Shown here: piece after piece, positions 4,718 to 61,100 of the stretch | Layout: every line of letters starts with the position of its first letter | Numbering within the stretch: position 1 is the first letter of the stretch | NCBI GenBank assembly: GCA_947054085.1 | Contig: CAMRVD010000001.1 | Location: 24,676-88,675, forward strand | Length of the DNA stretch: 64,000 nt | DNA from: an uncultured Clostridia bacterium | GTDB lineage: Bacteria; Bacillota; Clostridia; Christensenellales; UBA1242 | Reading direction: 5' to 3' | Notes under the pieces: generated by a model | The model's input: only the letters and a program-made list of their open reading frames with translations | What the model was told of the DNA's origin: nothing | Database searches by the model: none | Program-made: the position numbers and the translations under genes

Positions 4718-4746
4718 TTTTTAACCCTCCAAGTTTACTTAATAAA

Positions 4747-4775
4747 AGTATACCCCACCATTGTTAATCTGTCAA
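4747..4775 (-). promoter_or_regulatory. near-consensus sigma-A promoter for the 4717..3415 gene pair
   Basis: - strand TTGACA (4775-4770), 17 nt, TATACT (4752-4747), about 30 nt before the GTG start. Confidence 0.7.
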
Positions 4776-4882
4776 CCCCCAACTTTGTAGAAAATTTTAA
4801 TAAAATACAAACAAAAAGATTGGTAATTAAATAATAGATCAAACTAAATCCCTCAGTCTCGTCACAACTCTTGCAATGTTTC

Positions 4883-4964
4883 TCGCAATTTAAAAACTTG
4901 CTCCTCATTAGCAAGGTTGCTCCTCTCCCCACAAAGTGATACTTTGCGGGGACCCCGTAAATAC
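4883..4964 (+). repeat. X-family repeat, copy 1
   Basis: TCGCAATTTAAAAACTTGCTC ... CTCCTCTCCCCA - hairpin (CCCCACAAAGT/ACTTTGCGGGG) - GGGGACCCCGTAAATAC. Homologous to 9174-9260. Confidence 0.6.
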
Positions 4965-5205
4965 TTGCCAACTCCACTTGCAGGGGAGCCACTAGTTACG
5001 CTAAACAAATTGTTACAAAAAAAGGAAACATGGTGTCTCCTTTTATATAATTATTAAAACAACTTTTATCTTTACCAAAAGCTTTTAACGACAAGAATTA
5101 GATGAAATATAAAGAAATAAACCCCTCAGTCAGCCTCTGGCCGCCAGCTCCCCTTGTGTAAATTGCAATTTTTTTATCACCAGCTCTAAATTGGGGGAGC
5201 CCTTG

Positions 5206-5251
5206 GCAGACGAGGATTTTACTAAGCGTAAATGACGATGTCTGCTTTTTT
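5206..5251 (+). repeat. short copy (A) of the palindromic element: stem + conserved apex + T6
   Basis: GCAGAC-GAG-GATTTTACTAAGCGTAAATGAC-GAT-GTCTGC-TTTTTT. Confidence 0.7.
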
Positions 5252-5299
5252 AGATTTTCTACAACTAGTTATTTTTAATGTAAATAATATTCAAACTCC

Positions 5300-5427
5300 T
5301 TTTAACGGCATAATTTTAGATTAGACGAGAGCATAATAAAACCCCACGATGCGATTTTACTTTGCGTAAATGAGCAGTGTGGGGTTTTATGTATAAACGA
5401 AGTATAACTAAAATTATGCCGTTAAAA
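5300..5427 (+). repeat. full-length 128-nt palindromic element (B), also the tuf terminator
   Basis: 19-bp perfect outer stem 5300-5318/5409-5427. Inner stem AAAACCCCAC/GTGGGGTTTT. Apex GATTTTACTTTGCGTAAATGAG. The right arm ends 1 nt from the tuf stop codon (5429-5431). Confidence 0.8.
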
Positions 5428-5428
5428 A

Positions 5429-8760: not shown

Positions 8761-8897
8761 ATAAATAATGATTCTCCTGTAAATTAGGTAAAATGGGCAA
8801 AACTCCCCCATTAACCTATAAGATATTATAATTTATTTGTAAAAAAATGCCAACTATTTTTAAACACTTTTTTATAATTTTTACATGTTTTTAGGCT

Positions 8898-8925
8898 ATT
8901 ATACCAAAAAATATGATATTTGCAA
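8898..8925 (-). promoter_or_regulatory. sigma-A promoter for fusA-tuf (extended -10)
   Basis: - strand TTGCAA (8925-8920), 16 nt ending in TGG, TATAAT (8903-8898). Confidence 0.6.
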
Positions 8926-9173
8926 CGTATATGCGTTGTAATTTACCCAAAACTTAAAATTAAACAGACCATAATGTCTGTTTAATTATTTTTTGTTATT
9001 TAAAAATATGTATTTTATTGCTAATTAATAATAATTTTCGCTTTAAGCGGTTGTAAGTTTTATAGCATATTTTTTGCAAAAATCTTACACCTAACACATA
9101 AAATTAACTATAAATGTAACATATTTTAGGGTGAAATTAGATGCTAGACTTCGTCGTAACTTTGCTTTATTTA

Positions 9174-9260
9174 TCGCAAATTTTAATTTGCTCTTTTTTT
9201 TGCAATGATACTCCTCTCCCCATACAGTTTATTCTAAACTTATGGGGCCCCGTATTTACA
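9174..9260 (+). repeat. X-family repeat, copy 2
   Basis: TCGCAAATTTTAATTTGCTC ... CTCCTCTCCCCA - hairpin (CCCCATA..AGTTT/AAACT..TATGGGG) - GGGGCCCCGTATTTAC. It abuts element copy C. Confidence 0.6.
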
Positions 9261-9295
9261 GATAGGAGCTTGACGATTGCGTAAGTGACTATTAG
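9261..9295 (+). repeat. short, degenerate copy (C) of the element apex
   Basis: GATAGGAGCTTGACGATTGCGTAAGTGACTATTAG. Its ATAGGAGCTT..GCGTAAGTGACTA matches copy G. Confidence 0.55.
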
Positions 9296-9404
9296 TACAA
9301 GGCAAGCATCTGCAGTATAGCACTAATTAATACTCTAAAATCATTTTAGCGTTATGATCCTTAGCAAGTCGGCAAAAATTAGAATTTTACTAAGGCTCGC
9401 CATG

Positions 9405-9452
9405 TTTGATCTCCCGCGATTTTACTAAAGCGTAAATGAGCGGGCGTCAAGC
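9405..9452 (+). repeat. short copy (D) of the palindromic element
   Basis: TTTGATCTCCCGC-GATTTTACTAAAGCGTAAATGA-GCGGGCGTCAAGC. Confidence 0.65.
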
Positions 9453-9496
9453 TTGGCAGTATATTTGCTGTAAGTTTAATTCTAACACAGCAACCA

Positions 9497-9624
9497 TTTT
9501 AGTGCGAGAATTTGATTTGCAGCTAGGCTCTCAAAAATTTAATCGTTAGGAGTTTACATAATTGTAAATGACTAATGATAAATTTTTGTAAAAACAACAC
9601 TGCAAACAAATTGTCGCACTAAAA
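9497..9624 (+). repeat. full-length 128-nt palindromic element (E), immediately after rpsG
   Basis: Outer stem TTTTAGTGCGA..AATTTGATTTGCAG / CTGCAAACAAATT.TCGCACTAAAA. Inner stem CAAAAATTTAATCGTTAG/CTAATGATAAATTTTTG. Apex GGAGTTTACATAATTGTAAATGAC. The right arm ends at 9624 and the rpsG stop is 9625-9627. Confidence 0.8.
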
Positions 9625-10095
9625 TTACCAGCGGTAGCTTGCAAAGGCCTTATTAGCTTCAGCCATTCTGTGCATTTCTTCTTTCTTTTTAAATGCACCA
9701 CCTGCTTGGTTGTATGCATCCATAAGTTCGTTGGCTAAACGCAAAGCCATAGTGCGGTCTGTGCGTTTGCGGGCGCTTGCCACAATCCAACGAATAGCAA
9801 GTGTTTGACGTCTAACTGGGCGAATTTCCATAGGAACTTGGTAAGTAGAACCACCTACACGGCGAGCTTTAACTTCTAGCACTGGTTTAACATTTTCTAG
9901 TGCTTTGTCCCAAACTTCCATAGCAGAAACGCCAAGTTTAGACGAACTTATTTCTAATGCTTCGTATACAATTTTTTGAGCGATTGTGCGTTTGCCGTCT
10001 TCCATAACTTGATTAATAAGTTTGGTTATATCTTTGCGGTTATATACAGTATCGGCAAGAACTTCTCTAACTATTGCAGCATTTCTTCTTGACAT
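9625..10095 (-). CDS. rpsG: 30S ribosomal protein S7
   Basis: 156 aa, full-length S7 sequence (…VKARRVGGSTYQVP…ANKAFASYRW). Confidence 0.97.
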   Translation of the reverse strand: MSRRNAAIVREVLADTVYNRKDITKLINQVMEDGKRTIAQKIVYEALEISSSKLGVSAMEVWDKALENVKPVLEVKARRVGGSTYQVPMEIRPVRRQTLAIRWIVASARKRTDRTMALRLANELMDAYNQAGGAFKKKEEMHRMAEANKAFASYRW

Positions 10096-14562: not shown

Positions 14563-14689
14563 AATCCGCTCCCCTTTTTTACATAGATATTATATATATT
14601 ATAATGCCTACTATTATTATTGTCAATATATATGCTTTTTATGGATTGACAGAATTAAAAAAACCTTAACCCGCAATCTTAGGTTGCAT

Positions 14690-14800
14690 AAGCTAAGGCC
14701 ATTATTTATGAAGGACGAGTGCACTATGTCTGCCCACTCACGGATTTTAATTAAGCGTAAATGAATAGTAGCGGGCAGGCATAAGAAAATATAGGATTTA
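14690..14800 (+). repeat. degenerate copy (F) of the palindromic element
   Basis: AAGCTAAGGCCATTATTTATGAAGGACGAGTGCAC..GTCTGCCC..GGATTTTAATTAAGCGTAAATGAA..GGGCAGGC ATAAGAAAATATAGG. Boundaries approximate. Confidence 0.55.
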
Positions 14801-14831
14801 AGAAATTTAAACTCACTTCTTATTGTTATAT

Positions 14832-14961
14832 AATTAAGGCTATTATTTTATGAAAGGCGAGTGCTCAAAAAATGCTAGCGATAGGAGCTTACTTATGCGT
14901 AAGTGACTAGTGCTAGCATTTTTTAGAAAGCGAATTATTTTATGAAAGAATAGCCTTAATT
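14832..14961 (+). repeat. full-length 130-nt palindromic element (G); right arm lies inside the alaS CDS
   Basis: AATTAAGGCTATT 14832-14844 is the exact reverse complement of 14949-14961. Inner stem AAAAAATGCTAGCG/TGCTAGCATTTTTT. Apex GGAGCTTACTTATGCGTAAGTGAC. Confidence 0.8.
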
Positions 14962-16763
14962 CGGCGGACGCCGGCAGAAGAAGCCTCTTCCTTAACAATC
15001 TTAAACTTACCTAAAGAACCGGTATTTTGTACATGCGGACCACCGCAAATTTGAAAGTCGATATCACCAATTTTATAAACGCTGACAACTTCGTCCGCAG
15101 TGCCGTTATAAATACCATATGCACCACTGTTTAATGCCTCTTTATAAGGCATCTCGTGCCTAGTTACTGCAATATTTTGTTCTATAACATTATTAACAAA
15201 ATCTTCTAGAGTTTTAATTTCTTCGGATGTCATCTTATGGTCTAAATTAAAGTCAAAACGCATACGCTCATGGGTTATATTGCTGCCCTTTTGTACCGTT
15301 TTTTCGCCAAACATACGTCTAAGCCCTGCAAGCATGATATGAGTTGCTGTATGGTACGCAGTTTCCTTTTCTCCAGTAGCTGATAGTCCGCCCTTATTTT
15401 CACCCTTATGAGCGGTTCTTGCTAGTTCTTGATGCTCAGAAAAAGCTTTGTTGTATCCGTCCATATCTACGGTTAGTCCTTGTTCTGCCGCCATTTCCGA
15501 AGTAATTTCTACCGGAAAACCATAGGTTTCGTATAGCCTAAAGGCCTGTTTGCCGCTTATAGTTGTTTCTGGCATATAACCTGGGTTAGATTTTGCCATA
15601 AATTCGTTTTTACGATTAATCCCACTAACAACTTTTTCAAACTCCTTAGTACCGGCAATTATCGTTTTTTCAAACTTGTCAGCCTCGGCTTTAATACTAT
15701 CTAGTATGTATTGTTGTTTTTCTACAAGAAGTGGGTATGCTTTATCATAAACTTTTGTAATATAAATGTTGCAAATGTTTAGTAAGTCCTGTGTTGTAAG
15801 CCCTAGTTTACGAGCATGACGAATAGAGCGGCGAAGCAGTCTGCGTAAGATGTATCCGCTGCCGACATTGCTTGGAAGTATTCCGTCTTTGTCGCCAATA
15901 AGCATAACGCTAGTACGCATATGGTCAGCAACGATTCGCATACTTTTGGTTTTTTGCTCGTCCTCGCCATACTTAATGTTTAAGGCGTCTTCCATATAAT
16001 TAATTACGCCCAAAAATAGGTCGGTTAAATAGCCGTCGGTAAGGCCGTTAACATACATAAGTAACCGCTCAAACCCAAAACCGGTGTCTACGTTTTTATT
16101 TTTTAATGGAGTGTAGCCGCTATCGGTTTTAAGATACTGCATATAAACATCGTTGCCGACTTCTACCCACCTGCCGCAATCACAAGTAACATCGCAATGC
16201 TCGCTGCAAGGCTTATCTGTTATTGGATAAAACCATTCGTTATCGGGCCCACAAGGGGTGTTGGTTGTACCCTCTAGCTCCCACCAGTTATCTTTTAGGT
16301 AATAGATATTTTGCGGCTTAACCCCTGCCTTTACTAGGCAATCTACAGCCTCATCGTCTTTTGGAACATCACTATTCCCCGCAAAAACGGTGGCACAAAT
16401 TTTATCTTTGTTAAACCCTATAACCTTTGTTAAAAATTCAAACGACCATTGAGTTTTTTGCTCTTTAAAATAATCGCCCAAACTCCAGTTACCCATCATT
16501 TCAAAAAAAGTAAAGTGACTAAAATCGCCAACTTCGTCTATATCAACCGTACGTACACAGCCCTGAACATTACAAAGCCGAGTTTTTCCGCTTGGATGCT
16601 TTTTACCAAGTAAATACGGCATAAGCGGTTGCATTCCCGCAACATTAAACATAACACCAGTGCTTCCATCGCCAATAAGCGATACCCCACCAATATCGAT
16701 GTGCCCTTTTTCTTTATAAAAATTTAGCCACTTTTCTCTAAGTTCTTTAGAAGTTAATTTCAT
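14940..16763 (-). CDS. alaS: alanine--tRNA ligase, short form without C-Ala domain (607 aa)
   Basis: Class II AlaRS core (…FTFFEMMGNWSLGDYFK…), editing domain (HTATHIM…, CGGPHV). Ends at …SAGVRRIKAILS. Confidence 0.92.
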   Translation of the reverse strand: MKLTSKELREKWLNFYKEKGHIDIGGVSLIGDGSTGVMFNVAGMQPLMPYLLGKKHPSGKTRLCNVQGCVRTVDIDEVGDFSHFTFFEMMGNWSLGDYFKEQKTQWSFEFLTKVIGFNKDKICATVFAGNSDVPKDDEAVDCLVKAGVKPQNIYYLKDNWWELEGTTNTPCGPDNEWFYPITDKPCSEHCDVTCDCGRWVEVGNDVYMQYLKTDSGYTPLKNKNVDTGFGFERLLMYVNGLTDGYLTDLFLGVINYMEDALNIKYGEDEQKTKSMRIVADHMRTSVMLIGDKDGILPSNVGSGYILRRLLRRSIRHARKLGLTTQDLLNICNIYITKVYDKAYPLLVEKQQYILDSIKAEADKFEKTIIAGTKEFEKVVSGINRKNEFMAKSNPGYMPETTISGKQAFRLYETYGFPVEITSEMAAEQGLTVDMDGYNKAFSEHQELARTAHKGENKGGLSATGEKETAYHTATHIMLAGLRRMFGEKTVQKGSNITHERMRFDFNLDHKMTSEEIKTLEDFVNNVIEQNIAVTRHEMPYKEALNSGAYGIYNGTADEVVSVYKIGDIDFQICGGPHVQNTGSLGKFKIVKEEASSAGVRRIKAILS

Positions 16764-20344: not shown

Positions 20345-20581
20345 CAACATGCTCCTATGTATAAAAATATATATAAAATATACTACTAATAAAGCCAAAC
20401 TGTCAAGAACAAATAATAAACCGAGCATACATTGTATAATTTGGTTTATTTAAACAACATGTTCCACAAATTTTATAAATATAATTTCTACTCAAAACAA
20501 AAACACCAGCATAACGCCAGTTGTTTTTTTATTAATATATTTCCTAAGTTTTATGGTTAAACCAAAAAAATTACTATACCC

Positions 20582-20710
20582 TTTAAACGGCGAGAATTAG
20601 TGCAAGATGAGTGCTCTAAAAAAGCCAGCGATGGAAGTTTACTTTGCGTAAATGACCAGTGCTGGCGTTTTTAAGAAAGCGAAATATTGTACTAATTATC
20701 GCCGTTTAAA
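20582..20710 (+). repeat. full-length 129-nt palindromic element (H) overlapping the rpsR stop codon
   Basis: TTTAAACGGCGA/TCGCCGTTTAAA and GAATTAGTGCAA/TTGTACTAATT outer stems. Inner stem AAAAAAGCCAGC/GCTGGCGTTTTT. Apex GGAAGTTTACTTTGCGTAAATGAC. Confidence 0.8.
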
Positions 20711-20969
20711 TTGTTTTGTATGGAAGCAATGCCATAACCCTTGCCCTTTTAATAGCGCCCTGAAGTTCGCGTTGATGTTTTGCACAAACGCCGGTTGTTC
20801 TACGAGGTAAAATTTTACCTTTTTCGGTCATAAATCTACGAAGTTTAGTTGTATCTTTATAATCGATAGAAGCTTTTTCTGTGCAGAAAGCACAAACTTT
20901 TTTTACGCTTTTACGGGTTTTTTTAGGGTTTTTATCATCGCCATCGTTTTTTACGATCTTTTTGTTCAT
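20706..20969 (-). CDS. rpsR: 30S ribosomal protein S18
   Basis: …[46 protein letters not shown]… canonical S18. Confidence 0.93.
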
Positions 20970-40821: not shown

Positions 40822-40898
40822 TGGTTGCGGGAGCAGGATTTGAACCTGCGACCTTCGGGTTATGAGCCCGACGAGCTTCCGAGCTGCTCTATCCCGCG
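40822..40898 (-). tRNA. initiator tRNA-fMet (CAU), CCA encoded
   Basis: The reverse complement reads CGCGGGATAGAGCAGCTCGGAAGCTCGTCGGGCTCATAACCCGAAGGTCGCAGGTTCAAATCCTGCTCCCGCAACCA. C1/A72 mismatch and three G-C pairs closing the anticodon stem are initiator hallmarks. Confidence 0.93.
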
Positions 40899-41417: not shown

Positions 41418-41494
41418 GGCGGCTTAGCTCAGTTGGCTAGAGCGCCTGGTTCATACCCAGTAGGTCGTAGGTTCAAATCCCACAGCCGCTACCA
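41418..41494 (+). tRNA. tRNA-Met (CAU), elongator type, CCA encoded
   Basis: GGCGGCTTAGCTCAGTTGGCTAGAGCGCCTGGTTCATACCCAGTAGGTCGTAGGTTCAAATCCCACAGCCGCTACCA. The anticodon loop TTCATAC resembles elongator Met; a tRNA-Ile2 (lysidine) identity cannot be excluded. One A/C mismatch in the T-stem. Confidence 0.85.
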
Positions 41495-49138: not shown

Positions 49139-52100
49139 TTAACTTAAAGTTATTGTAATATTGTCAAACTCTACACCATCAGCACCCGAGTCATCCATAT
49201 TAATAATAGGATTATCCAGTTCGCTATCGTTATCGTTAGAGATTTTAATATGGCTATATTGTCCCGCACATGCACCAGTAAAGAAGAATAAGTAACTTTG
49301 AACAGTTCCTGTATTATCTACAGGCACAACACCAATCATATCTATGTTGCAAGCTTTTACATAGCTACCATCTTGCTGGTTAAATATTATACCTGCCCTA
49401 GTAGCATTTTGTATTTGCATACGATAAATGGCTGCACCTTTTTCCTCTGTATTTTCGTCTTTACTTGCAGAGTTTATGTATAGTTCGCCAATTACATTAA
49501 ATAATGTTAGACCTTGACCATCGCCATAATCTATATTTATAGCCGCACTATTTGGGTTGCCCGAATTAAATTTAAGTACGCTACCAGCACTAACCTCGAA
49601 TACACTACCACCAGTGAATGTACCACCAGTTTTTGTAATTTTTAATGTAGCACTGGTACCGTTTGTAGTACCCTCTACTTCGTCACCCGAAACAACTAAT
49701 CCTAAAGTATTGATTGTAAGTTTTATAGGACTACCATTATTAGTCGTTAGCTTAATAGTTTTATTTATATTATAAACTCTACTATTTATACCATCGTTGT
49801 ATAGATTAATTATAGCGTCAGTAATATTATTTTCTACAATCCAGTTGTAGGCAGCCATAAAGTCGTTTGCACAGGTTTCTGTATCGGTTTGTTTAAAGTT
49901 TCCAAAACCTTTATGCTTTTTATAGCCATCGCCATACTCTACCCAAACACTAACAGGTTTCCATTCGCCAGCTAATTTAATATTACCAGCGTCTTTGTTA
50001 TCCCAAAGCAAGATTGTAGAATTATCTCCACCTATGCTTTGTAAATAGCCCTTAAGAATACTAAACTCGTTGTACTGATTTAATGTTCCGTCACTACCAT
50101 AAATAGACCACTCGCCTTGGTTATTTGTGCTATAACCAACCAATCTATAATGCGTTATATCAGCGATTTGATTTAGTGTAAAGTGGTTATAATCCACATT
50201 TCCTTCTGGTATTGTTTGAGTGTATTGTTCTAGAGGATCATCATTACTGTCTGCATAATAGTATATTGTACCATATTTATTAAACTGAACATTAACTACA
50301 ATATTGCGGTTAAATAAATTTTGATTAGTTTCGACTTTAGCCGCTAAGCTATGACCCGCACCGCTTTGATCAGCTTCGCTAGTAATGTTGTAATTAATTT
50401 TACTACCAGTTATAACGCCTTCGTCAGAATGCTGTTCTGTATAAACTTCTGTTAGCTTGTAGAAGTAATAGAAGGTTTCTACCTTTACATCGGCTTTATC
50501 CCAATAGGTTATAAAGTCGCCATGAACAAGTGAACTAAAGCTATTGCCATTTTCGCTAGATATTACCAAATAATTACTACCTATCATAGCGTAAGCAGTT
50601 TTACTAGTGTAACTATTTTGTACTTCTGCACTTAAGTTAGCAATGGTATTATCATATTTAGTTCTGTCTATATTAGTAAATGTCAATAATCGTTCGATAG
50701 CTGTTCCCTTAAACAGTTTAACAGTTATTTCTACCTTAGCTGCACCTTGTTGTAATGATCCGCCAGAATATATATTAATTAAGTCGTTTAAGCTTACGTT
50801 AGAATATATTGGATCACAATCTACTATTGCACCTATTGTAGTAAGATTTCTTGTTATATCACTAAACTGCACAACATATTTTCTGTCAGTACCTTCGCCC
50901 TCCAACTTAATTGATCCAAAATTAATTGTGTTTATAATTATAGGAACTTCTGCAGAACTTAGTAAAGTTTTATTTTCTCCATTGTAAATTGCATCATTAT
51001 TTGCATAATTTAAGATATCATCATGAGGAGTTAGTGTAACTCTTTCGCTTTGGTAAGCAGTTATAACAATATCGTTGGTAAACAATACTTCATCTTCTAT
51101 TCCAGCAAAGTTAGAAGTCGGTACTTTACGAATTACTCTATTAGTAACAGTAAACTGCATTTTATGATACCAATTAGCAGTTAAATTTAGAGTAATATCG
51201 CCAGAATTATTTCCGTTTAAGACAACTACTTCCCAATTGTTATTATCATAAATATTAATACCATTAATATTATCAAACACTAATTCGCCTAACGTTCCGT
51301 CAGCTTTTAGGTTCTCTCTGTACGCAAATGTAATAGCACTACCACCATTAATAGGTGTACTTACAATATTTGCAAGTTTACGAGGACCATTATCTACATC
51401 CTTTAGTAAATCGTAAAGGTCGCTGTTTTGTAAGTTTATTATGTCTTTATACCAACCTGTGACTGTGCCCATAATGCGATTTGAATCGGCATCAAAAACT
51501 TTAAGCGTAATCTTTGCTTGGTTATAAGTAACGGTAATTATATCACCTTGTGCTAGTGGCAAGTACGTTGTTTCGCCGTTTATAGTTGTAGAACAATATT
51601 CGCGACTTATAGTACCTAATATGTTACCTGTTGTTTCGCTATTAGTATTTACATCACTTACATAGCTAATTCCACTTATGTAATAACCATTATTTACTTT
51701 TGCCGTTGCTGTATATTTTATACGATCACCGGCGTAAATAGTTATAGTTTTACGAACCGAAGTATTAATAGTAGCACTAGCAATATCTGCAACTACACTA
51801 TCCGCATAATAGTAATTTAAAGTGCTATCTGCATTATTTACTAATCTGTTGTGTCTATCAAACTCTTCTAAATAATTTATACCTTGAAGTGTAAACTCGC
51901 CAGCATCTGCAGTTATATTATCCAACCCACCAGTATGCTCTGCATCTAACACGCTATCTACATTAATTTGGATTGTCTTTAATGTTAATAGTACAACAAT
52001 GTATATATCGTCACCATTATTTGCATCAAATGCAGGAAGAATTGTGCTATCAGTTTTTTGTGTAATTATAACTTTTCCGCTTGAAGTTATAATAGCGTAA

Positions 52101-55100
52101 CCAAATAGATTGTAATAATCAAATTGTTCGGTATCAGAAAGCCCAAGGACAGAGCCTGTAGCAATACTATTATCAGTTAAGTATAATCCGTAGCTTTGTT
52201 TAAAGTTATAGGTTACACCTAACCTATCTGATAACACTAAACCACCAGACAAATCTGCCGATAGTTGCTCGAAGTCTGATGCGTCTATAGCTATAATTGA
52301 TTTTGCAGGGTTTTCTACCACATTATAAACATTAGCTGACCAAATAGGAGATAATCTTGTACCATTGTTAGTTTTATTAAATGGGTTTTTAAGGTTTACA
52401 GAAGTTTGCGATATTTCTACTTGGTCTTTGCTATCTGCTAAATCAAAACCAGATAAGTGGTAACCAGTTTTTGTGCCAATAATGCTTGTTATCTTATAAA
52501 CATCAGTAGTTTTACCGTTATATTCTGGATTTTGGTTAGACCAATATAATCCAGTATCTGCAAACAATCCATAAATGTTACCAACAGCTGTAGTCGAATT
52601 GTAAACTTCGCCATTAGTACCTGCTATAAAGCTAATATTTTCGCCATCCTTAGCATTAACATTTAAGCTAAAGTATTTTGCCGCCATTGTAGCAGTAAGT
52701 TGTAGCTCACCAGTATATGTATAAGGTTTATCTAAACTATTAAAGTTGTTCATTTCTCCTGCTACTAAGTTATATAGAACACTATTAGAGCTTCCGCTTG
52801 CAGCCACAAACTGATAACCATTATTGGTAGAAACACCACCAAGTGTTACTTCTTTATTTATGTTTAAATTAGAAATTCTGTGAGCAATACCGCTACTATC
52901 TTTTACATAAAGTTCGGTAGAATCAAACTTAATAAATATATTGTCTATATCGTTAAAGGCTTGACTACTACTTGTAATAAATGCACTTAAGTTATCTGTT
53001 GTTTTATTTGTAAAGCTTATATTATATAAATTAGCTTCCCAAATAGCATAAATTGTAAGTTCGCCATCGTATATCCATCTGCCGTCTACATCTGCAAACG
53101 AAGAGCCTTTTACGATTGTTCCAGTTTCGTCAAACACCATTTGACCATCTACAGTGTTACCTGCGGAATAGAATCCTTTAAATGTATATCCATTTACACT
53201 ATAAAGTAATTTTACTGTTACTTTTTGATCGTAAGTAACAACATGGCTTGTTTTAAAGTTTCCTGTTGTATCTGTTATAGGTGTTCCAAAGTAGCTTATT
53301 GTATTATAAGTACTCATATAAACTGGACTATCTGGGTTTGCACTGGCATTTGCGTTAAGTGTTACCGTGTAGTTTTTAGCAGTCCATCTAGCAAATAAAG
53401 TTAGTGAATTTCCATTTGCAGGAATATGTTTCCATACTCCATCTATAATGTAAGCGTTAGTAGTGGTATCTGTTATTGGATTACCATTACTATCGTATAC
53501 AAGCACGCCGTCTTCGCTAGCCCAGCCGCCAAATGTGTAACCAGCAGCCGTTGGGTTAATATACCCCGATAGACCACTTAAGCTATTAACTGCATCGTTG
53601 TATCTAATTATAAACTGAGAAATACCCATCTCTACAGATGTATTTGGTTTGTCTGCATCTGCAGCTTTTGGCGTGTTAGGATTTAGATAAATTGTATAAC
53701 TTTGTGCCGACCAGTTTGCAGTTAAACTAAAGCTTCCCCAAATTCCTGCAGATAGTATTAGATTTTCGCCTTCGGCAATAATGTTCACTTCGCCAAAAGT
53801 ACTATTAACGCCCGTACTATCAACCGACCAACCAGTAAAGTTGTATCCATCCTTTGTAGGATTACTTAATTGTAAAGTCTGCTCGTCTGCATTGTAAGTA
53901 TACTCTTTTGGTGTATTTAAGCCTTCTGTTCCGCCGTCTAAATTATAAGTTATCTGATATTCGCCAGCTGCATAAATTGCCTTAAGGGTAACGTTTCCAT
54001 AATTTCCTTTACCTAAGTGCATGTCTGTTAACTGAGCACCATTTACAAAACTGCCAGATGTTGACATAACTAAATAGTAAGCTAAATTAAAGCCAGGATT
54101 TTTTGCTTTAGGTAATGTAATATCGCTTTCGTAAGTATACTCTAATGGTTCTATTGCTTCGCCGCCATTAGTATCAAAAGTGATAGTATATTTATTAACT
54201 TGCCATTTTGTGTATAGGTCTATGGTAGCATTAGCAGCCGCTGCGTACACCCACTTACCATCTGATATATATCCATTAACATCTGTAACCGCAACACCGC
54301 TGTTTGTAAACAACTGCACACCATTTTCGGTTCTGGAAGTATAGTAACCAAGTAATGTATAACCATTAGCTGTTGGCATACTTGTAATTTGAGCTATGCT
54401 ATTGTCAAATATTACATTTACAGTAGTTGTTCCAGCAGTAATATCACTAGTCATTCCGCTAATTGGAGTCTGGTTTAGGTTAAGTGTATATGTATGTGCC
54501 TGCCACCTAGCATAAAGGTTAACGACTCTTTCGCCATTGCTATTTTCGGCAGCGTCATAAATCCAGTTGCCAGCTTCGCTTACATAAGAGGTTCCAAGAA
54601 CCACTCTTCCATCAGCCCCAAACACTTGAACGCCAGTAGATTGACCCGAGTAGAAGCCCATAAATGTATAACCATTAGCCGATGCCATAGCTTGTATATT
54701 TACACCACCATCAAACCTTACTTGTGGATTTGGTACTTGAACGCCGCCAGATGTAATATTAATGGTTATAGTGCTGCTCATATTAATTGGCTTATTATTG
54801 TTAAAGCTTAAAGTAATGCTATTAGCACTCCAAACTGCATATAAAGTAAATACCTTTGCATTATTTACTACACTTGCACGGTTGTACCACGAGTTAACAT
54901 ACTCGGTAATACTTGCATCTCCGCTATTTGTAGCTGGTATACGATTAGTAGAAAGAACATCGCCATTTGTAGTTGTAGACCAACCCATAAATGTGTATCC
55001 GCTAAGAATGTAATTATTAACAGATAGGGTTAAGCTACTATCGTAAGTCGCAATACTATTTGCTGTATTTCCGCTAATATTGCTGCTTGCACCATTAGGT

Positions 55101-58100
55101 TTGTTGCTATTATATTCCACAATAAATGTATCTGCTTGCCAAGACGCGTACAATTGTACATTTTGACTACTGTTATCTTTTATCCATTTACCATCTAAAA
55201 TATATTCGCCATTTACAACATAGCCATTTTCGTCAAATACTTTTTCGCCGCCTACACTTGCACTATAGTATCCCATAAATGTATAACCGGCAGCCGATGC
55301 ATAACTTCTAATGTTTACAACAGCATCAAAGGTTACTTTGTATTCTGTAATAACAAAGCCTTGCAAATTAGTTACAGTTTTAATAATCTCACTGGTCATC
55401 GCTTTAGAGCCAGTTGGTTTGTTATCATTAAATACTAAATTATAAGTTTTATTCTCCCATACTGCGTAAAGCGTCTTTGTACCATTTTCTTTATACTCGT
55501 CGCTATTAAACCAGCTATTCACCATTGTACTATCTGCAGTAGCACCATTTGTTAATACAACAGCACCATCCGAAGTTTCTGCCCAACCCATAAATGTATA
55601 TCCACTTAAAATGTAAGTGTTTATATTTAATGTTAAGCTTTGATCAAATGACACTACGCTACTTGTCATAGGTTCGGAAGATACACTTGTACTAGCATCT
55701 TCTACTTGGTTAGAGTTGTAAACAACTTCTATTGTATTTGCTTGGAAGTGTGCATACAATGTTAGCCATTCGTCATTTTCGGCATAAGCCCATTTACCTT
55801 CGTCGTTAGTATAGCCTGTTACACCTTTTACAACTGCTCCGGTTTCGTCAAATATTTTTTCGCCACCATCGCTTTCGGTGTAAAAACCTGTAAATGTATA
55901 ACCAAATGCACTTGCTTTTGCACTAATATTAACAGCTAAATCAAAAGTAACTGCATTTGATAACGAGTAAGATCCGTTGGTAATTGGTACTTCATTGCCA
56001 TCTATAATAACAACAATATGACTAGACATATCGCCCTTGTTTGTACTAAATACCAAACCCATGGCTTTGTTAGCCCAGTTTGCATATAAAGTAAAGCTTT
56101 GATCATGTGTTAAATTATATGCATTTTCTACATAATCTTTATCGCCGCTAACCGCTTGTATACCATCAGTTATTGTCCATGCGTTTGGTTGATAACCGTT
56201 TGCAGTCATTGAGTTTGTTTGAAGAATAACATCTTCGCCAAAGACTTTGTAAGTTGCACTAGGAAGCCCAACTGCAGCAGGTACTAATGAGTTTTGAGCG
56301 TATGTAATTATGTATTGCTCTCTTAAATAAAGTGTAATATTAGATTCTTTATTTTCTGCACTACCAGTAGGAAGCCAACTATATTCGATACTATTTGTAT
56401 TACTATTAACAGTAGGAACACTATTAACATCCAAATAATATTGATAATCTCCGTTAACTGTAGAAATTGTAATTATAACTTGGTTTGTTTCGCTATAATT
56501 AGCTTTAATTTGTCCGGTAAGGTTGCTAGCATTAAGAATAAATTCTGTGTCGCCAGCAGAAACTCTAACACCAGTTGCATGAGTTGTTCCTGCGTCTAGG
56601 CTGATATTTAAAGTAATCTCCCAAATCTTCCAGTTAGAATATAATTGTAAATCTGCATTTGCCGAGTATACTGCACCCGAAACATATGTAGGTTCGTCTA
56701 AAATAGCAGATTTATCTGTTACCCAGCCATTAGCACTATAACCGGTAGTTACCAGCGAGTTATTTGCCAATGTTACATCTGTACCATACACCTTGTCGAT
56801 ACTTACAGGAAGTGTACCAGTTACTGGCTTGCCTGCAAGATTATTTAATGTATGATTATAGCTAATTGTATAATGTTTATATGCAGATAAAGTTATATGT
56901 GCATCTTCTGTAGAAATCCAGTTATATGTTGTGCTGTTTAGATCACTACTTGTTGTAATATTGCCATTTGTAGATAGATAATATCCGTCTAATGCAAAAG
57001 TAACAACTACAGGCTCACCATTAAACTCGTGATTTTTTACAATAGTAACACTGCTGCCGTTATAGGTAATAGACGATGCACTAAGAACGCCGCCTTCGCT
57101 AGCTTCGCCCGTTACTGGAAGCACTCCGTATTTTGCGGTAATTAGAGCAATAAGACTATCACCATCAAAACCTGCATCTGTAAAGTCTATGGTTAAAGTA
57201 TATTTATTAATATTACAATTACTTGTAAACGTTACGTTTTTACCATTAAAGGTATTATATAATTCGTTGGCACTAACTTCTTCGTTTTGATTATATGTAA
57301 CTAAGTTGTTAGTTTCTGCACTACCAGTACTCCAAATACTAGTAAGAGCATTATATCCTAAATCTGCAAGTATTATTGGTGTAGTAAATGTTTGGTCGTA
57401 TGTAGCAGTTATGCTATTTACACTAGATGTACCATTATTTACAACCCAGTTGACTTTATATGTATTTGCTGTAAATGTTGCATAAACAATAGCATCACTA
57501 CTATGTATCCACTTACCATCCTTAGTAAACTCAGGAACATTAGATACAATGTTTCCGTTTGCATCAAATATAAGTTTAGCATCTTCGCCACTGGTGTAAT
57601 ATCCTGTAAAAGTATAACCGTTTGCCGAAGCAATAGCTAAAATACTTACTGTTTGATTAAATATAACTTTTGCTTTATTTATACTATGAGATACCTCACT
57701 AGTCATTGTGCTTGGCTTATCAAAAGTAAAGGTAATATTATACTCGTTAGCTTGCCAAACAGCTTCTAATGCTACATTGCCATAATAAGTAGATCCTGCA
57801 ACTGATGCTCCGCCGTTTAAAGTTGTATCTACTTCCCAGTTTCCTGTAGACTGAGTAACCTTCCAGTTAATAAATGTATATCCTGCTTTTGTAGCAGTAG
57901 CTATAGTAATATCGTCTGTATAAATATAGTTTGTTGTATGATCAACAGAAGAAATCACTCCGCCATTTAACTGGTAATTAACTTGGTAACTTGTATACTT
58001 AACATATACAGAACAAGCAATATCTTGATTTACAGTTAATAGAGTGCTGTAATTGGTGGTTTTTTCAGCATCTAACATAATGTAAGGTAAATCTGCTTTA

Positions 58101-61100
58101 TAATTATCTATAGTAACTTCGCTACCTTTTTTAATATAATACTCCGATGTACCCAAAACTTTGGTAGCCTTACCACCAGTAATAACATTTACACTGCTAT
58201 TAGCATCAGACACACTTTCGTTATTAAAGTAGAAAGCCACGTCTAATTTGCTTAATTGATCTATATATAGATAAACTATAGTATCATTATTTGCAGGCAT
58301 AACTATCGAAGTACTAACTTCGGTAGATATGTCGCCGTTGTTTAAATACAACGTATTTTCTAATGCTTTGCTCAAAAAGCTAATATAGTAAACCTTATCA
58401 GAATCTGCAGCTTTAATATACAAACCTACTCTTTCACCAAAGTTTCCATAGATACTAAAGTCTTGAATATCTTCTACAGCCGTCCATTCACTAATGCTGT
58501 TGGTTTTATATAATAAATTAGGAATATCGCTTCCGATAACATTTACCGTAAATTTATATTTAGCAACTTGATATTCTGCTTTTAATGTAATGTCGCCGTA
58601 TTTACCACTACTAATACTAAAGTCGCCATCGCCACTATAAGAAATAATATTATCGGTTAATTCTGCATCCCAGCTATTATTTTGTTGACTAGCAATCGAA
58701 TATCCAATAAAGTCGTACCCTTGTTTTGTTGGAACTGGTAAAGTTATTGTATCATTTATTGTATACTTACTGGTGTAATCACCGTCTACATTGCCATCAT
58801 CAAAATTATAGCTAATAGTATAAGTATTAATTGTCCAATCAATGGTAAATGTTACATTACCATATGCGTTAGTTATTTCTACAGCACCGCTTTCTGCAAT
58901 ATTTGCAAATACTTGGTTTGGTTTAAAGCTACTATCTGCATCTGCTTTTGTAACTTTAAAGCCACCAAAGCTATACCCATTGTTTGTAGGAATACTTAAC
59001 GAAAGACCACTTTCTATAGAATAATCTACATTTGTAGTGTCGTCACCATTAACTATAGTTGCTGTATAGCTATTTAAAGTAAACGTAGCAACAACTGTAA
59101 TATCTCCAAGATAAATATAGGTACGAGTTTCGCTTATGTAGTTAGCATTTTTAACAACGTTTCCGTCTTCGTCAAAAATTTTAACACTAGCATCGTCTTT
59201 TAATACATAGCCGGTAAATGTATAACCATTTGCTACCGCCATTGCATTAAAGTTTATTATGCTATCAAATAGTACACCTTTAGTGGTATAAGTTTGTACT
59301 ATTTCCACACTTTGCGGCATCGAATCTAATCTGCCATCGTTAAAGGTTATGGTGTACCGATTTGCACTCCATATTGCATAAAGTTGTTTTGTACCGTCTT
59401 TGCCAACACCGGCTTCCGAATACCAAGAATTAACAACTTCTTTGTCTATTTTTGAACCCTCGCTAAAGGAAGTTCCTTTTCCGTCTGCTCTGGTATTCCA
59501 ACTATCAAATGTATAGCCCGGTAAAACAAAGTTATTATTACTTAAAACAGCACTTTCACCATAAGTTGCAACTGAACTTTCGGTTACAGAGTCTTGTAAC
59601 TGAGTACTTGCAGATGATGGTTGATTACCGCTGTAGCTAATAGTAAAATTATCTGCTGTAAATACTGCTGCAATGTTACTTTGAGTAGTTAAAATATAGT
59701 CGCTTGTAAGTTCTGCTGTATTTAAGTTAACATTTACATCACCATTAAACCCTTGTAATGTGCTGCCAAATAAAGATCCTGTTATTGCAGTAATCTTATA
59801 AACTTCAGCATTATAACCTACATACTTAGGGTTAGAACTTGCAAAATACAATCCTTTTTGACCATAAATTGCATATAGTGTTCCGTTAGCAGTAATGGTA
59901 TATTCGCTTGCTGTGCTTCCTGCTGTATAAGCAAAATGCAATATACCACCATTAGCATCTATAAATATCTCATAGTAGTTAGCAGCTAACACAATTGTAA
60001 GAGTGTCAGTTGCATCTTTATTATAAACAGTGCTTAAGTTTGCAACATTATCGCTACCAATTATTACACTATTATCTGTAAGATTAGCAGCTGTTAAAGT
60101 AAATCCTGCTTTTGTTATAACTAAGTTTGTTACAGCAACATAATCGTCACCATCTTTAATAAATAATGTTTTGCTATCGTACTGAACATATAGTTTAAAA
60201 TCTGCATTAATTAAATTATCGTTTGCTGTAATGCTAGCACCATTATCGTTAATACTTAAAGCATAGTAATTTGCTGTAAATTTAGCTGTAAATACTAAAT
60301 CTCCATATGTTAAAGCATCTATACTTAATTTTCCATCTACAATGTCAGCACCATTATTATTGCAATCGAACGCTACAAAAGTGTAGCCTGTTTTAGCCAC
60401 AATAATGTTACTAGCTATTAAGTTATCACTTTCGCTTACTGTATAGGTAGTAGGAAGTATAGATTCTGCATTACCACCATTTAAATTAAAGGTTATTGTA
60501 TATGTGTTTCCGGTATATCTTGCGTAAAGATTAATACTTACATCTGTATTTGAAGTGCCAGCAAGATTTAATAGGGTTTGACCAGCAATATAAATTGTTT
60601 CGGTTTCGCCAGCAATTCTAGATGTACCTTGTGTTGTTGCCCAACCAGTAAGAGTCCAGCCACTAATAGAGCTATTTTGCAACTCGTCCTCGGTTAATGC
60701 ATTTTTTGCAGTATCGTATATATAAGTACTTTCGCCAAACAGCACTAAACCATTAAACGAATAGTATTTAATTGTATATTCGTTCGCCTTCCAAACAGCA
60801 TACAATGTAATTTCTTCGCCAGTTTTATCGGTAAGATTTAGTACCTGTTCCTCGTCGTTATATACTTTTGCTCCAGTGCTTGTGAGTGCCCAGCCTGTAA
60901 AAGTATAACCAATTAAACTAAATTGATTTGCACTTAAAGTAGTAGCGGTATCGTATTTATGATCTTGATTAGCCATAATACCGGATACTTCGCCACTGGT
61001 ATTAGCAGGTTTATTACTATTAAATTTAACTTGATACTCGTTAGCTTCCCACTGAGCTACAAAAGTTATATCGTAATAGATATGCTCTACAACTTGACTA

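Follow-up and report, generated by a model that had tools for sequence, protein, structure and literature searches.

The region behind alaS in the window (the whole 64-kb stretch of DNA that was analysed) probably consists of one complete and one decayed ERIC/IRU-type palindromic repeat, here called copies B and A. We consider it likely that the repeats at the end of alaS are the paired arms of copy B; the element may have a translation-coupled role in the 3′ UTR of the gene. A first-pass annotation had noticed the repeats, without mention of their likeness to ERIC. The pattern it described is real and is explained mostly by the structure of a repeat of the ERIC family, in hosts outside its reported range. 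Its reading of the pattern as the footprint of a mechanism, and not of a fold, is only partly supported.

Paired arms at the end of alaS

The alaS gene (14940–16763, − strand) encodes a short AlaRS of 607 amino acids without a C-Ala domain, which ends in GVRRIKAILS* (Pfam PF01411 and PF07973 on homologues). On the + strand, sequence comparison finds the 15-nt ATTATTTTATGAAAG twice, in the far arm (14842–14856) and on the gene side (14934–14948), with 15/15 identical positions. The gene-side copy takes in the alaS stop codon (14940–14942, − strand) and the final two codons (L and S), and both copies abut a 77-nt core (14857–14933). AATTAAGGCTATT (14832–14844, + strand) is the exact reverse complement of 14949–14961, where alaS reads (R)IKAI on the − strand. 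All these coordinates, including the overlap with the stop codon, had been given correctly. In first-order Markov shuffles of 14563–14990, a direct repeat of at least 15 nt within 200 nt occurred 2 times in 3000, and an inverted repeat of at least 13 nt 11 times in 3000.

The segment that holds the alaS stop codon, TTTTATGAAA, is a near-palindrome and is found in both arms of copy B. As a consequence, the two direct copies around the core also pair with each other (10 consecutive pairs, two of them G.U on the + strand), and 14832–14961 folds as a single hairpin. The 13-nt inverted copy is the outermost stem of this ERIC-type hairpin. Its far arm is a sense-oriented copy of the (R)IKAI codons, and its gene-side arm is formed by the native codons themselves. 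The base of the hairpin extends 19 nt into the coding sequence, which is why the far arm is complementary to the IKAI codons.

Copy B as a whole spans 130 nt (14832–14961) on the + strand, the purine-rich strand of the apex motif and antisense to alaS. Its inverted repeat is 14832–14855 / 14938–14961, and its arms measure 53 and 55 nt; in the family, a 21-nt apex stands between arms with a median length of about 50 nt. The single hairpin has a folding energy of −55.3 kcal/mol on the + strand and −39.0 kcal/mol on the − strand, with z about −8 on both (−8.7 is given for B). Within the core (+ strand), A6 and T6 flank an inner hairpin, and two boxes, GGCGAG and AGCGAA, are conserved. At its centre lies the apex motif GAGCTTAC-TTATGC-GTAAGTGA (14885–14906, + strand), which in E. 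coli ERIC is GAGCTTAC-ATAA-GTAAGTGA.

Copy A (14690–14800, + strand) is an older, partial copy with a left arm, a hairpin and an apex (14743–14764), but without a gene-side arm. Its stem-extension score is 15, against 58 for copy B. It bears AAGCTAAGGCCATTATTTATGAAGG at 14690–14714, and its left arm agrees with that of copy B at 22/27 positions, so that the degenerate upstream copy does have its own left flank, as had been remarked before.

The next gene has a consensus sigma-70-type promoter (TTGACA, 17 nt, TATAAT; 14598–14626, − strand; 12/12 match). Hence, transcription of alaS should end upstream of that point, and the element, which sits between the alaS stop codon and this promoter, belongs to the alaS 3′ UTR. 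A possible terminator at 14655–14683 (− strand), a hairpin followed by U7, folds weakly (−5.3 kcal/mol, z 0.16) and was not relied on. Open reading frames of 18 codons start at the ATG of a repeated ATGAA in copies B (14850–14906) and A (14706–14762), both on the + strand. We rejected a small-protein gene, since a third copy (copy C, behind rpsR) has a 1-nt indel and with it another frame and stop, as judged by eye. Rfam found no T-box upstream of alaS, and an exact look-up of the window AlaRS sequence gave no match. Homologues of this AlaRS are found in gut Clostridia MAGs of the Christensenellales type. The AlaRS of the whole clade (window 14940–16763, − strand, and L004–L083) is about 607 amino acids long, lacks the C-Ala domain and ends right after the editing-domain motif GVRRIKA.

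A palindrome family related to ERIC

The alaS element is one of many. The apex motif (GA-N-YTTAC, 5–6 nt, GTAARTGA) occurs eight times in the window, always on the + strand, and at least eight element copies lie at four loci within 21 kb. All are intergenic and form arrays of 2–3 with a period of about 140 nt, directly 3′ of the − strand genes tuf, rpsG, alaS and rpsR (identified with Pfam). The window holds multiple dispersed copies that are extragenic and next to gene ends, as ERICs are. Each gene-proximal copy is enclosed by a long inverted repeat, the start of which is at or over the stop codon. Distal copies in the arrays keep the left arm and the hairpin and have no gene-side arm.

We built a covariance model, R1, from 72 metagenome copies only, with no enterobacterial sequence. 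It scores the window copies at 29–47 bits, with copy B at 29.3 bits (E 1e-5). Behind tuf, the complete copy (5300–5427, + strand, 41 bits) has arms complementary at 20/20 positions (5300–5319 / 5408–5427) from 1 nt past the stop codon, and a partial copy lies distal to it (5196–5252, + strand, apex motif and R1). The complete copy behind rpsG (9496–9625, + strand, 40.9 bits) has arms complementary at 20/22 positions (9496–9517 / 9604–9625) from the stop codon on. Two more partial or degenerate copies (9247–9481, + strand, apex motif and R1) share its 813-nt rpsG-fusA spacer. Behind rpsR lies the complete copy C (20572–20720, + strand, 46.8 bits), whose arms (20572–20608 / 20684–20720) cover the rpsR stop codon (20706–20708). 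The rpsG-fusA spacer of the str operon (8812–9624) holds three ERIC-like copies in all, and the spacer downstream of tuf (4718–5428) two.

A metagenome pattern scan for GAKTTTACTWNGCGTAAATGA returned at least 120 loci, and the scanned loci have the same apex within hairpins about 120 nt long, each arm measuring about 50 nt. The element consists of an apex (GAG-YTTAC-loop-GTAAR-TGA), internal loops that are purine-rich on one strand, and the two arms, in which the sequence drifts while complementarity is kept. Asymmetric internal loops in the arms, AAGGC on one side and GCGWAAC on the other, are conserved in the family. The stems covary, with 4–6 pair types at most paired columns among 72 copies. 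For this the consensus structure was derived from folds of the individual sequences, because RNAalifold on MAFFT alignments gave almost no structure.

The placement of the hairpins is as regular as their shape. In complete copies the base of the hairpin sits on the stop codon of the upstream gene, almost always in one orientation. At 33/79 loci the base lies at −6 to +2 nt relative to a convergent gene's stop codon, and at 26/79 it reaches into coding sequence. Of 68 copies, 35 adjoin a gene end on the antisense side only, 2 on the sense side only and 5 on both. The adjoining genes are varied and mostly housekeeping (S12, IF2, Obg, SecY, Ffh, AsnRS, YchF and others). Several subfamilies probably derive from Bacteroidota, to judge from neighbouring TonB-receptor-like C-termini and a lipoprotein-type N-terminus. 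In the Bacteroidota-type copies, as in the enterobacterial ones, the arms are conserved to their very ends.

The family also has variants (L161:60-270, L179 and L185; also L134 and L177). In these the 3′ arm has an insertion of about 140 nt, itself structured, between the conserved boxes; other copies are chimeric, with the right half replaced. The insert variants recall the long forms of ERIC. Eight loci (L101, L102, L111, L122, L146, L152, L210 and L214) have a further small hairpin, about 35 nt left of the element, in which the loop (CTAAAAAGTAAAWTAG) is conserved, the stems covary and A and T runs form the flanks. This hairpin accompanies Bacteroidota-type copies and resembles a bidirectional terminator between convergent genes. 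Near-identical tandem arrays with periods of 116 and 105 nt occur behind obg and another gene (L117:385-715; L119, L147, L211), and in these the gene-side arm is present only in the gene-proximal unit.

The apex and its flanking boxes match the corresponding parts of ERIC/IRU. The 44-nt core GTGAATCCCCAGGAGCTTACATAAGTAAGTGACTGGGGTGAGCG of the E. coli ERIC matches 5424/5426 E. coli genomes, and copy B shares GGAGCTTAC and GTAAGTGAC exactly with it. Between ybhJ and ybhI, the E. coli ERIC is a 127-nt palindrome (TATACTC...GAGTATA) whose end lies 2–3 nt away from the stop codon of ybhI; its orientation is that of the copies described here. Copy B, at 130 nt, is likewise an imperfect palindrome of about 127 bp. 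A plasmid BLAST search with a metagenome copy gave matches in Halomonas and Pseudomonas veronii. Both are full hairpins of the same build, and the end of the Halomonas copy lies 5 nt from a convergent gene's stop codon.

R1 recognises these two copies with 53 bits (Halomonas) and 45 bits (Pseudomonas). Seven enterobacterial ERICs were collected by BLAST with the E. coli copy, and R1 finds six of them at full length and on the same strand, with 16–37 bits (E 1e-9 to 3e-3); the E. coli ERICs score modestly, at 16 bits. The central core is conserved in the R1 alignment of ERICs and window copies. These matches lead us to regard the element as an ERIC-family repeat beyond the reported host range, which comprises Enterobacteriaceae and Vibrionaceae (review PMC10969869). 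BLAST of the Halomonas copy against E. coli gave no match, and BLAST with the E. coli ERIC matched almost only Enterobacterales among the named genera (six minor genera were unnamed in the output). With curated Rfam models, the window, the metagenome loci and the Halomonas and Pseudomonas sequences gave no relevant match at gathering or E-value thresholds, only generic miRNA-like noise from long hairpins.

The likeness to ERIC/IRU/RU-1 extends to a hairpin of about 127–130 nt with apex GAGCTTAC..GTAAGTGA and the boxes AAGGCG and GAGCGAACGCA, to an extragenic position abutting the stop codon of the upstream gene, and to many dispersed copies. It also includes internal-insertion variants, occasional fusion to a gene 3′ end, and recognition of both groups by the one model R1. 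ERIC is described as a 127-bp MITE-like repeat with terminal inverted repeats, TA termini and a TA duplication (PMC2229807; PMC2759123), and ERIC fusions that remove the normal stop codon of a gene have been reported (PMC2759123). The alaS of one relative (L003) is fused in the same way, with a C-terminal extension DFGE* encoded by the element arm.

There are also differences from ERIC, among them the hosts: Christensenellales-like gut Clostridia, probable Bacteroidota, Halomonas and Pseudomonas. Between copies of the window species the arms have diverged to near background; moreover, copies stand in same-orientation arrays of 2–3, and the inner hairpin has A/T-run flanks. Every complete window copy has arms, and the termini TTTAAA, TTTTAA and ATTTTAG contain TA; copy B ends inside coding sequence (AATT|CGG) without a clear flanking TA duplication.

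Correia/NEMIS, RUP and YPAL/RU-2 are also small, non-coding, hairpin-forming MITEs that are co-transcribed with their neighbours in 3′ UTRs. The target duplications of YPAL, 3–26 bp next to dyad symmetries (PMC2229807), resemble the direct repeats of 11–22 nt at a few loci here. However, these families have no sequence similarity to the element and conserve their terminal repeats, not the apex. REPs and RAYT-associated REPINs are also palindromes, extragenic and biased in orientation, that lie downstream of genes. A REP unit has 20–40 nt, a GTAG or CGTC head and a conserved stem sequence (PMC3733652), whereas here the apex is conserved and the stems vary.

Several other identities were rejected. 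An integron attC site needs an outer R″ (RYYYAAC), then R′ (GTTRRRY) and a variable centre; here the centre is conserved and the GTT/AAC-like boxes stand in reversed order (alignment by eye). The arrangement of the boxes does not fit a dif/Xer-like site either. ARAGORN found only three tRNAs, elsewhere in the window, and no tmRNA or tRNA at the element. The apex pattern has 16 matches in IMG/VR, none of them in a hairpin, and there was no phage BLAST match, which speaks against a viral origin. A CRISPR/tracrRNA or omega-RNA had been suggested by GTTTTAG and by a neighbouring ORF of 1023 amino acids at L161, which proved to be DUF6562 with a lipoprotein-like N-terminus. Some copies contain GAUGAGCGAAAC, as hammerheads do, but they have no stem II and no Rfam match. 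Look-alikes of the apex in 16S rRNA and RNase P were ruled out by the variable loop positions.

Origin and maintenance of the arms

How did the arms come to match the gene? Relatives show that the element behind alaS is sporadic, with R1 finding it in only 5/80 alaS loci. A contig of the same species (L001) has the window structure, with one SNP in the gene-side direct repeat (AATACT). L002 (AlaRS 80% identical) has a plain terminator behind alaS, with no element and no flank copies, and carries a copy behind rpsR. About 75 other relatives have no inverted repeat that involves the coding end of alaS. The comparison with element-free relatives, which had been proposed as a check, thus supports the first-pass annotation on this point. 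The IKA[IV]L C-terminus is conserved in about 80 relatives. Since the outer 13 bp of the gene-side arm are these conserved native codons, the far arm has come to match alaS and not the reverse.

The first-pass annotation held that the repeats look less like selection on an RNA fold, and this part of its reading is not supported. The inverted repeat is the basal stem of a hairpin that covaries throughout the family. Moreover, the stem recurs in L017 (AlaRS 66%), where the copy behind alaS has the outer stem AATTAAGGCTGTT / AACAGCCTTAATT at the same position and with the same boundaries as in the window. It differs by a compensatory change from A:T to G:C (GCTGTT paired with AACAGC). Identical boundaries, the compensatory change and the covariation of the family together argue that the pairing at alaS has been maintained. 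The arms of rpsR-linked copies in three species are unrelated in sequence and complementary within each copy. Copies B and C also differ by compensatory changes in the stem of the core (TGCTAGC/GCTAGCA versus GCCAGC/GCTGGC). Maintenance of the fold is therefore better supported than had been thought.

Pairing could be kept in two ways, by selection on the transcript or by DNA-level correction between the arms. Mismatches on the motif strand are purine-purine in 487 cases and pyrimidine-pyrimidine in 30, and the motif (+) strand folds better in 107/116 copies (mean −47.6 versus −40.1 kcal/mol). Counts of G.U (G.T) and A.C in the stems, 190 versus 241, show no strand preference, which makes maintenance at the DNA level equally possible.

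One could also argue that the repeats record movement of the element and not its function. The mobile unit would then be the core, or the core with one arm; its arrival would have duplicated the 15-nt target, and the hairpin would have been extended by fold-back or template-switch copying of the alaS end. We regard this as a possible but distinctly weaker reading than paired arms. It accounts for an exact direct repeat that borders directly on the core at either end and is rare in shuffles. Such a repeat is not predicted by a pure paired-arms reading, since, given the inverted repeat, four specific base differences are needed to yield it. Direct copies of the gene end that include the stop codon are also found at L130 (16 nt), L003 (22 nt), L156 (12 nt) and tuf (11 nt). 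The absence of flank copies from element-free relatives and the restriction of both arms to the gene-proximal copy of an array fit this account as well.

The arms of copies B and C give the same account further support. They are no more alike than shuffled sequence (16/27 versus a mean of 14.7), while the cores are 84% identical (64/76 between 14857–14933 and 20609–20683). This leaves room for cores that move or convert independently of their arms. It is unlike the copies of a classic MITE and counts against the reading that we prefer. Hybrid and half copies recombined at the apex occur in L003 (AlaRS 79%), whose copy behind alaS has an arm that encodes the C-terminal extension (..ISTDFGE*), and where the gene end and half of the hairpin are directly repeated three times. 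In that relative, tandem duplications of about 270 nt behind alaS (L003:9267-9880) and about 157 nt behind rpsR (L003:4900-5170) have units in which the gene end is copied directly together with the 5′ half of the hairpin, and the breakpoints fall at the apex.

Other findings count against this account. First, a direct repeat of at least 11 nt is present at 5/73 family loci and absent from the other 68. Second, the conserved asymmetric internal loops mean that the arms are not simple fold-back copies, and arm length is constant at about 50 nt. Third, enterobacterial and Bacteroidota-type arms are conserved to their ends, and the L017 stem fits long-term maintenance. Inspection of flanks elsewhere, another check that had been proposed, gave a divided answer. 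Complementarity of the flanks recurs at tuf (20/20), rpsG (20/22) and rpsR (27–37 nt), and direct repeats are not family-wide. The 15-nt repeat at alaS is the one feature best read as a duplication footprint, and it may be a real one.

A bolder form of this idea, which we regard as improbable, is that ERIC-type hairpins are an ancient cross-phylum device anchored at stop codons. Rather than being inherited, their basal stem would be templated anew at each host gene, whose 3′ end would be copied across the hairpin by fold-back or template switching. Re-templating would account for locus-specific and perfectly complementary arms, inverted coding copies, occasional direct copies of the stop region and half-copies in arrays. 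If true, it would be a mode of propagation and palindrome growth that has not been described for bacterial MITEs.

It is similarly improbable that the element functions as an independent + strand molecule, either a small RNA or single-stranded DNA, antisense to gene ends and with a basal stem that masks or pairs with the 3′ end of the mRNA. The better folding of the motif strand and its purine-rich internal loops would suit such a molecule, as would a −35/−10-like site at 14806–14834 and the T6 after the inner hairpin. However, promoter-like sites occur at chance level (5 found versus 3.5 expected), Bacteroidota-type copies lie too close to the upstream hairpin for a promoter to fit in between, and placement tied to the stop codon of the gene fits a role in cis. 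Least probable is insertion of the core into a pre-existing hairpin at the alaS end (X-loop-X′ with the stop codon in the loop, AATTAAGGCTATT...AATAGCCTTAATT) with duplication of the loop: if the core and one of the two direct repeats are taken out, what remains is a perfect 13-bp stem around a 12-nt loop, and tuf has a local 11-bp stem around its stop codon (TCTAAAATTAT / ATAATTTTAGA), but 0 of about 75 element-free relatives have an inverted repeat at the alaS coding end, and in L080 (AlaRS 63%) the element lies just past the alaS stop codon, without overlap with coding sequence and without such a stem.

Possible function and wider occurrence

For the paired-arms reading, a function can be proposed by analogy. 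In Yersinia, ERIC is co-transcribed with the upstream gene and lowers the upstream transcript in an orientation-dependent manner, with ribosomes unmasking an RNase E site in the 3′ terminal inverted repeat (PMC2229807; PMC10969869); Yersinia is the sole source of experiments on this effect. The element in the window would be transcribed as the 3′ UTR of alaS. A ribosome that terminates at the alaS stop codon would melt the basal stem and free the AU-rich far arm for an endonuclease, and in this way mRNA decay may be coupled to translation. Compensatory changes, or templated correction of one arm by the other, would keep the far arm complementary to alaS.

Two points weaken this proposal. To our knowledge, Firmicutes have no RNase E, which leaves the nuclease step as no more than an analogy. 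A6 and U6 flank the inner hairpin, which is probably also a terminator, perhaps a two-way one. If it terminates efficiently, the far arm would be missing from most transcripts, which weakens the reading at the RNA level. Should alaS transcripts end at the inner hairpin and U6, the far arm would not be in the mRNA and could not act there.

ERIC is the textbook “enterobacterial” repeat and is used worldwide for PCR typing, while its origin, movement and function are unsettled. The same apex and the same placement at stop codons in gut Clostridia, probable Bacteroidota, Halomonas and Pseudomonas suggest that the family is far older, or far more mobile across phyla, than assumed. The diverged copies provide the covariation needed to define the structure of ERIC. 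Anchoring at stop codons in a single orientation makes the Yersinia model of translation-coupled decay testable in unrelated bacteria. For annotation, the elements account for unusually long spacers inside ribosomal-protein operons and for altered C-termini such as that of the L003 alaS.

Two further features of the window lie outside the element loci. A giant ORF (49139–63919, − strand) of 4926 amino acids has many internal repeats spaced about 615–1700 nt apart and probably encodes a repetitive surface protein. Two tRNA-Met genes (40822–40898, − strand, and 41418–41494, + strand) are inverted, 71% complementary and separated by a 520-nt spacer; a tRNA-Glu gene follows.
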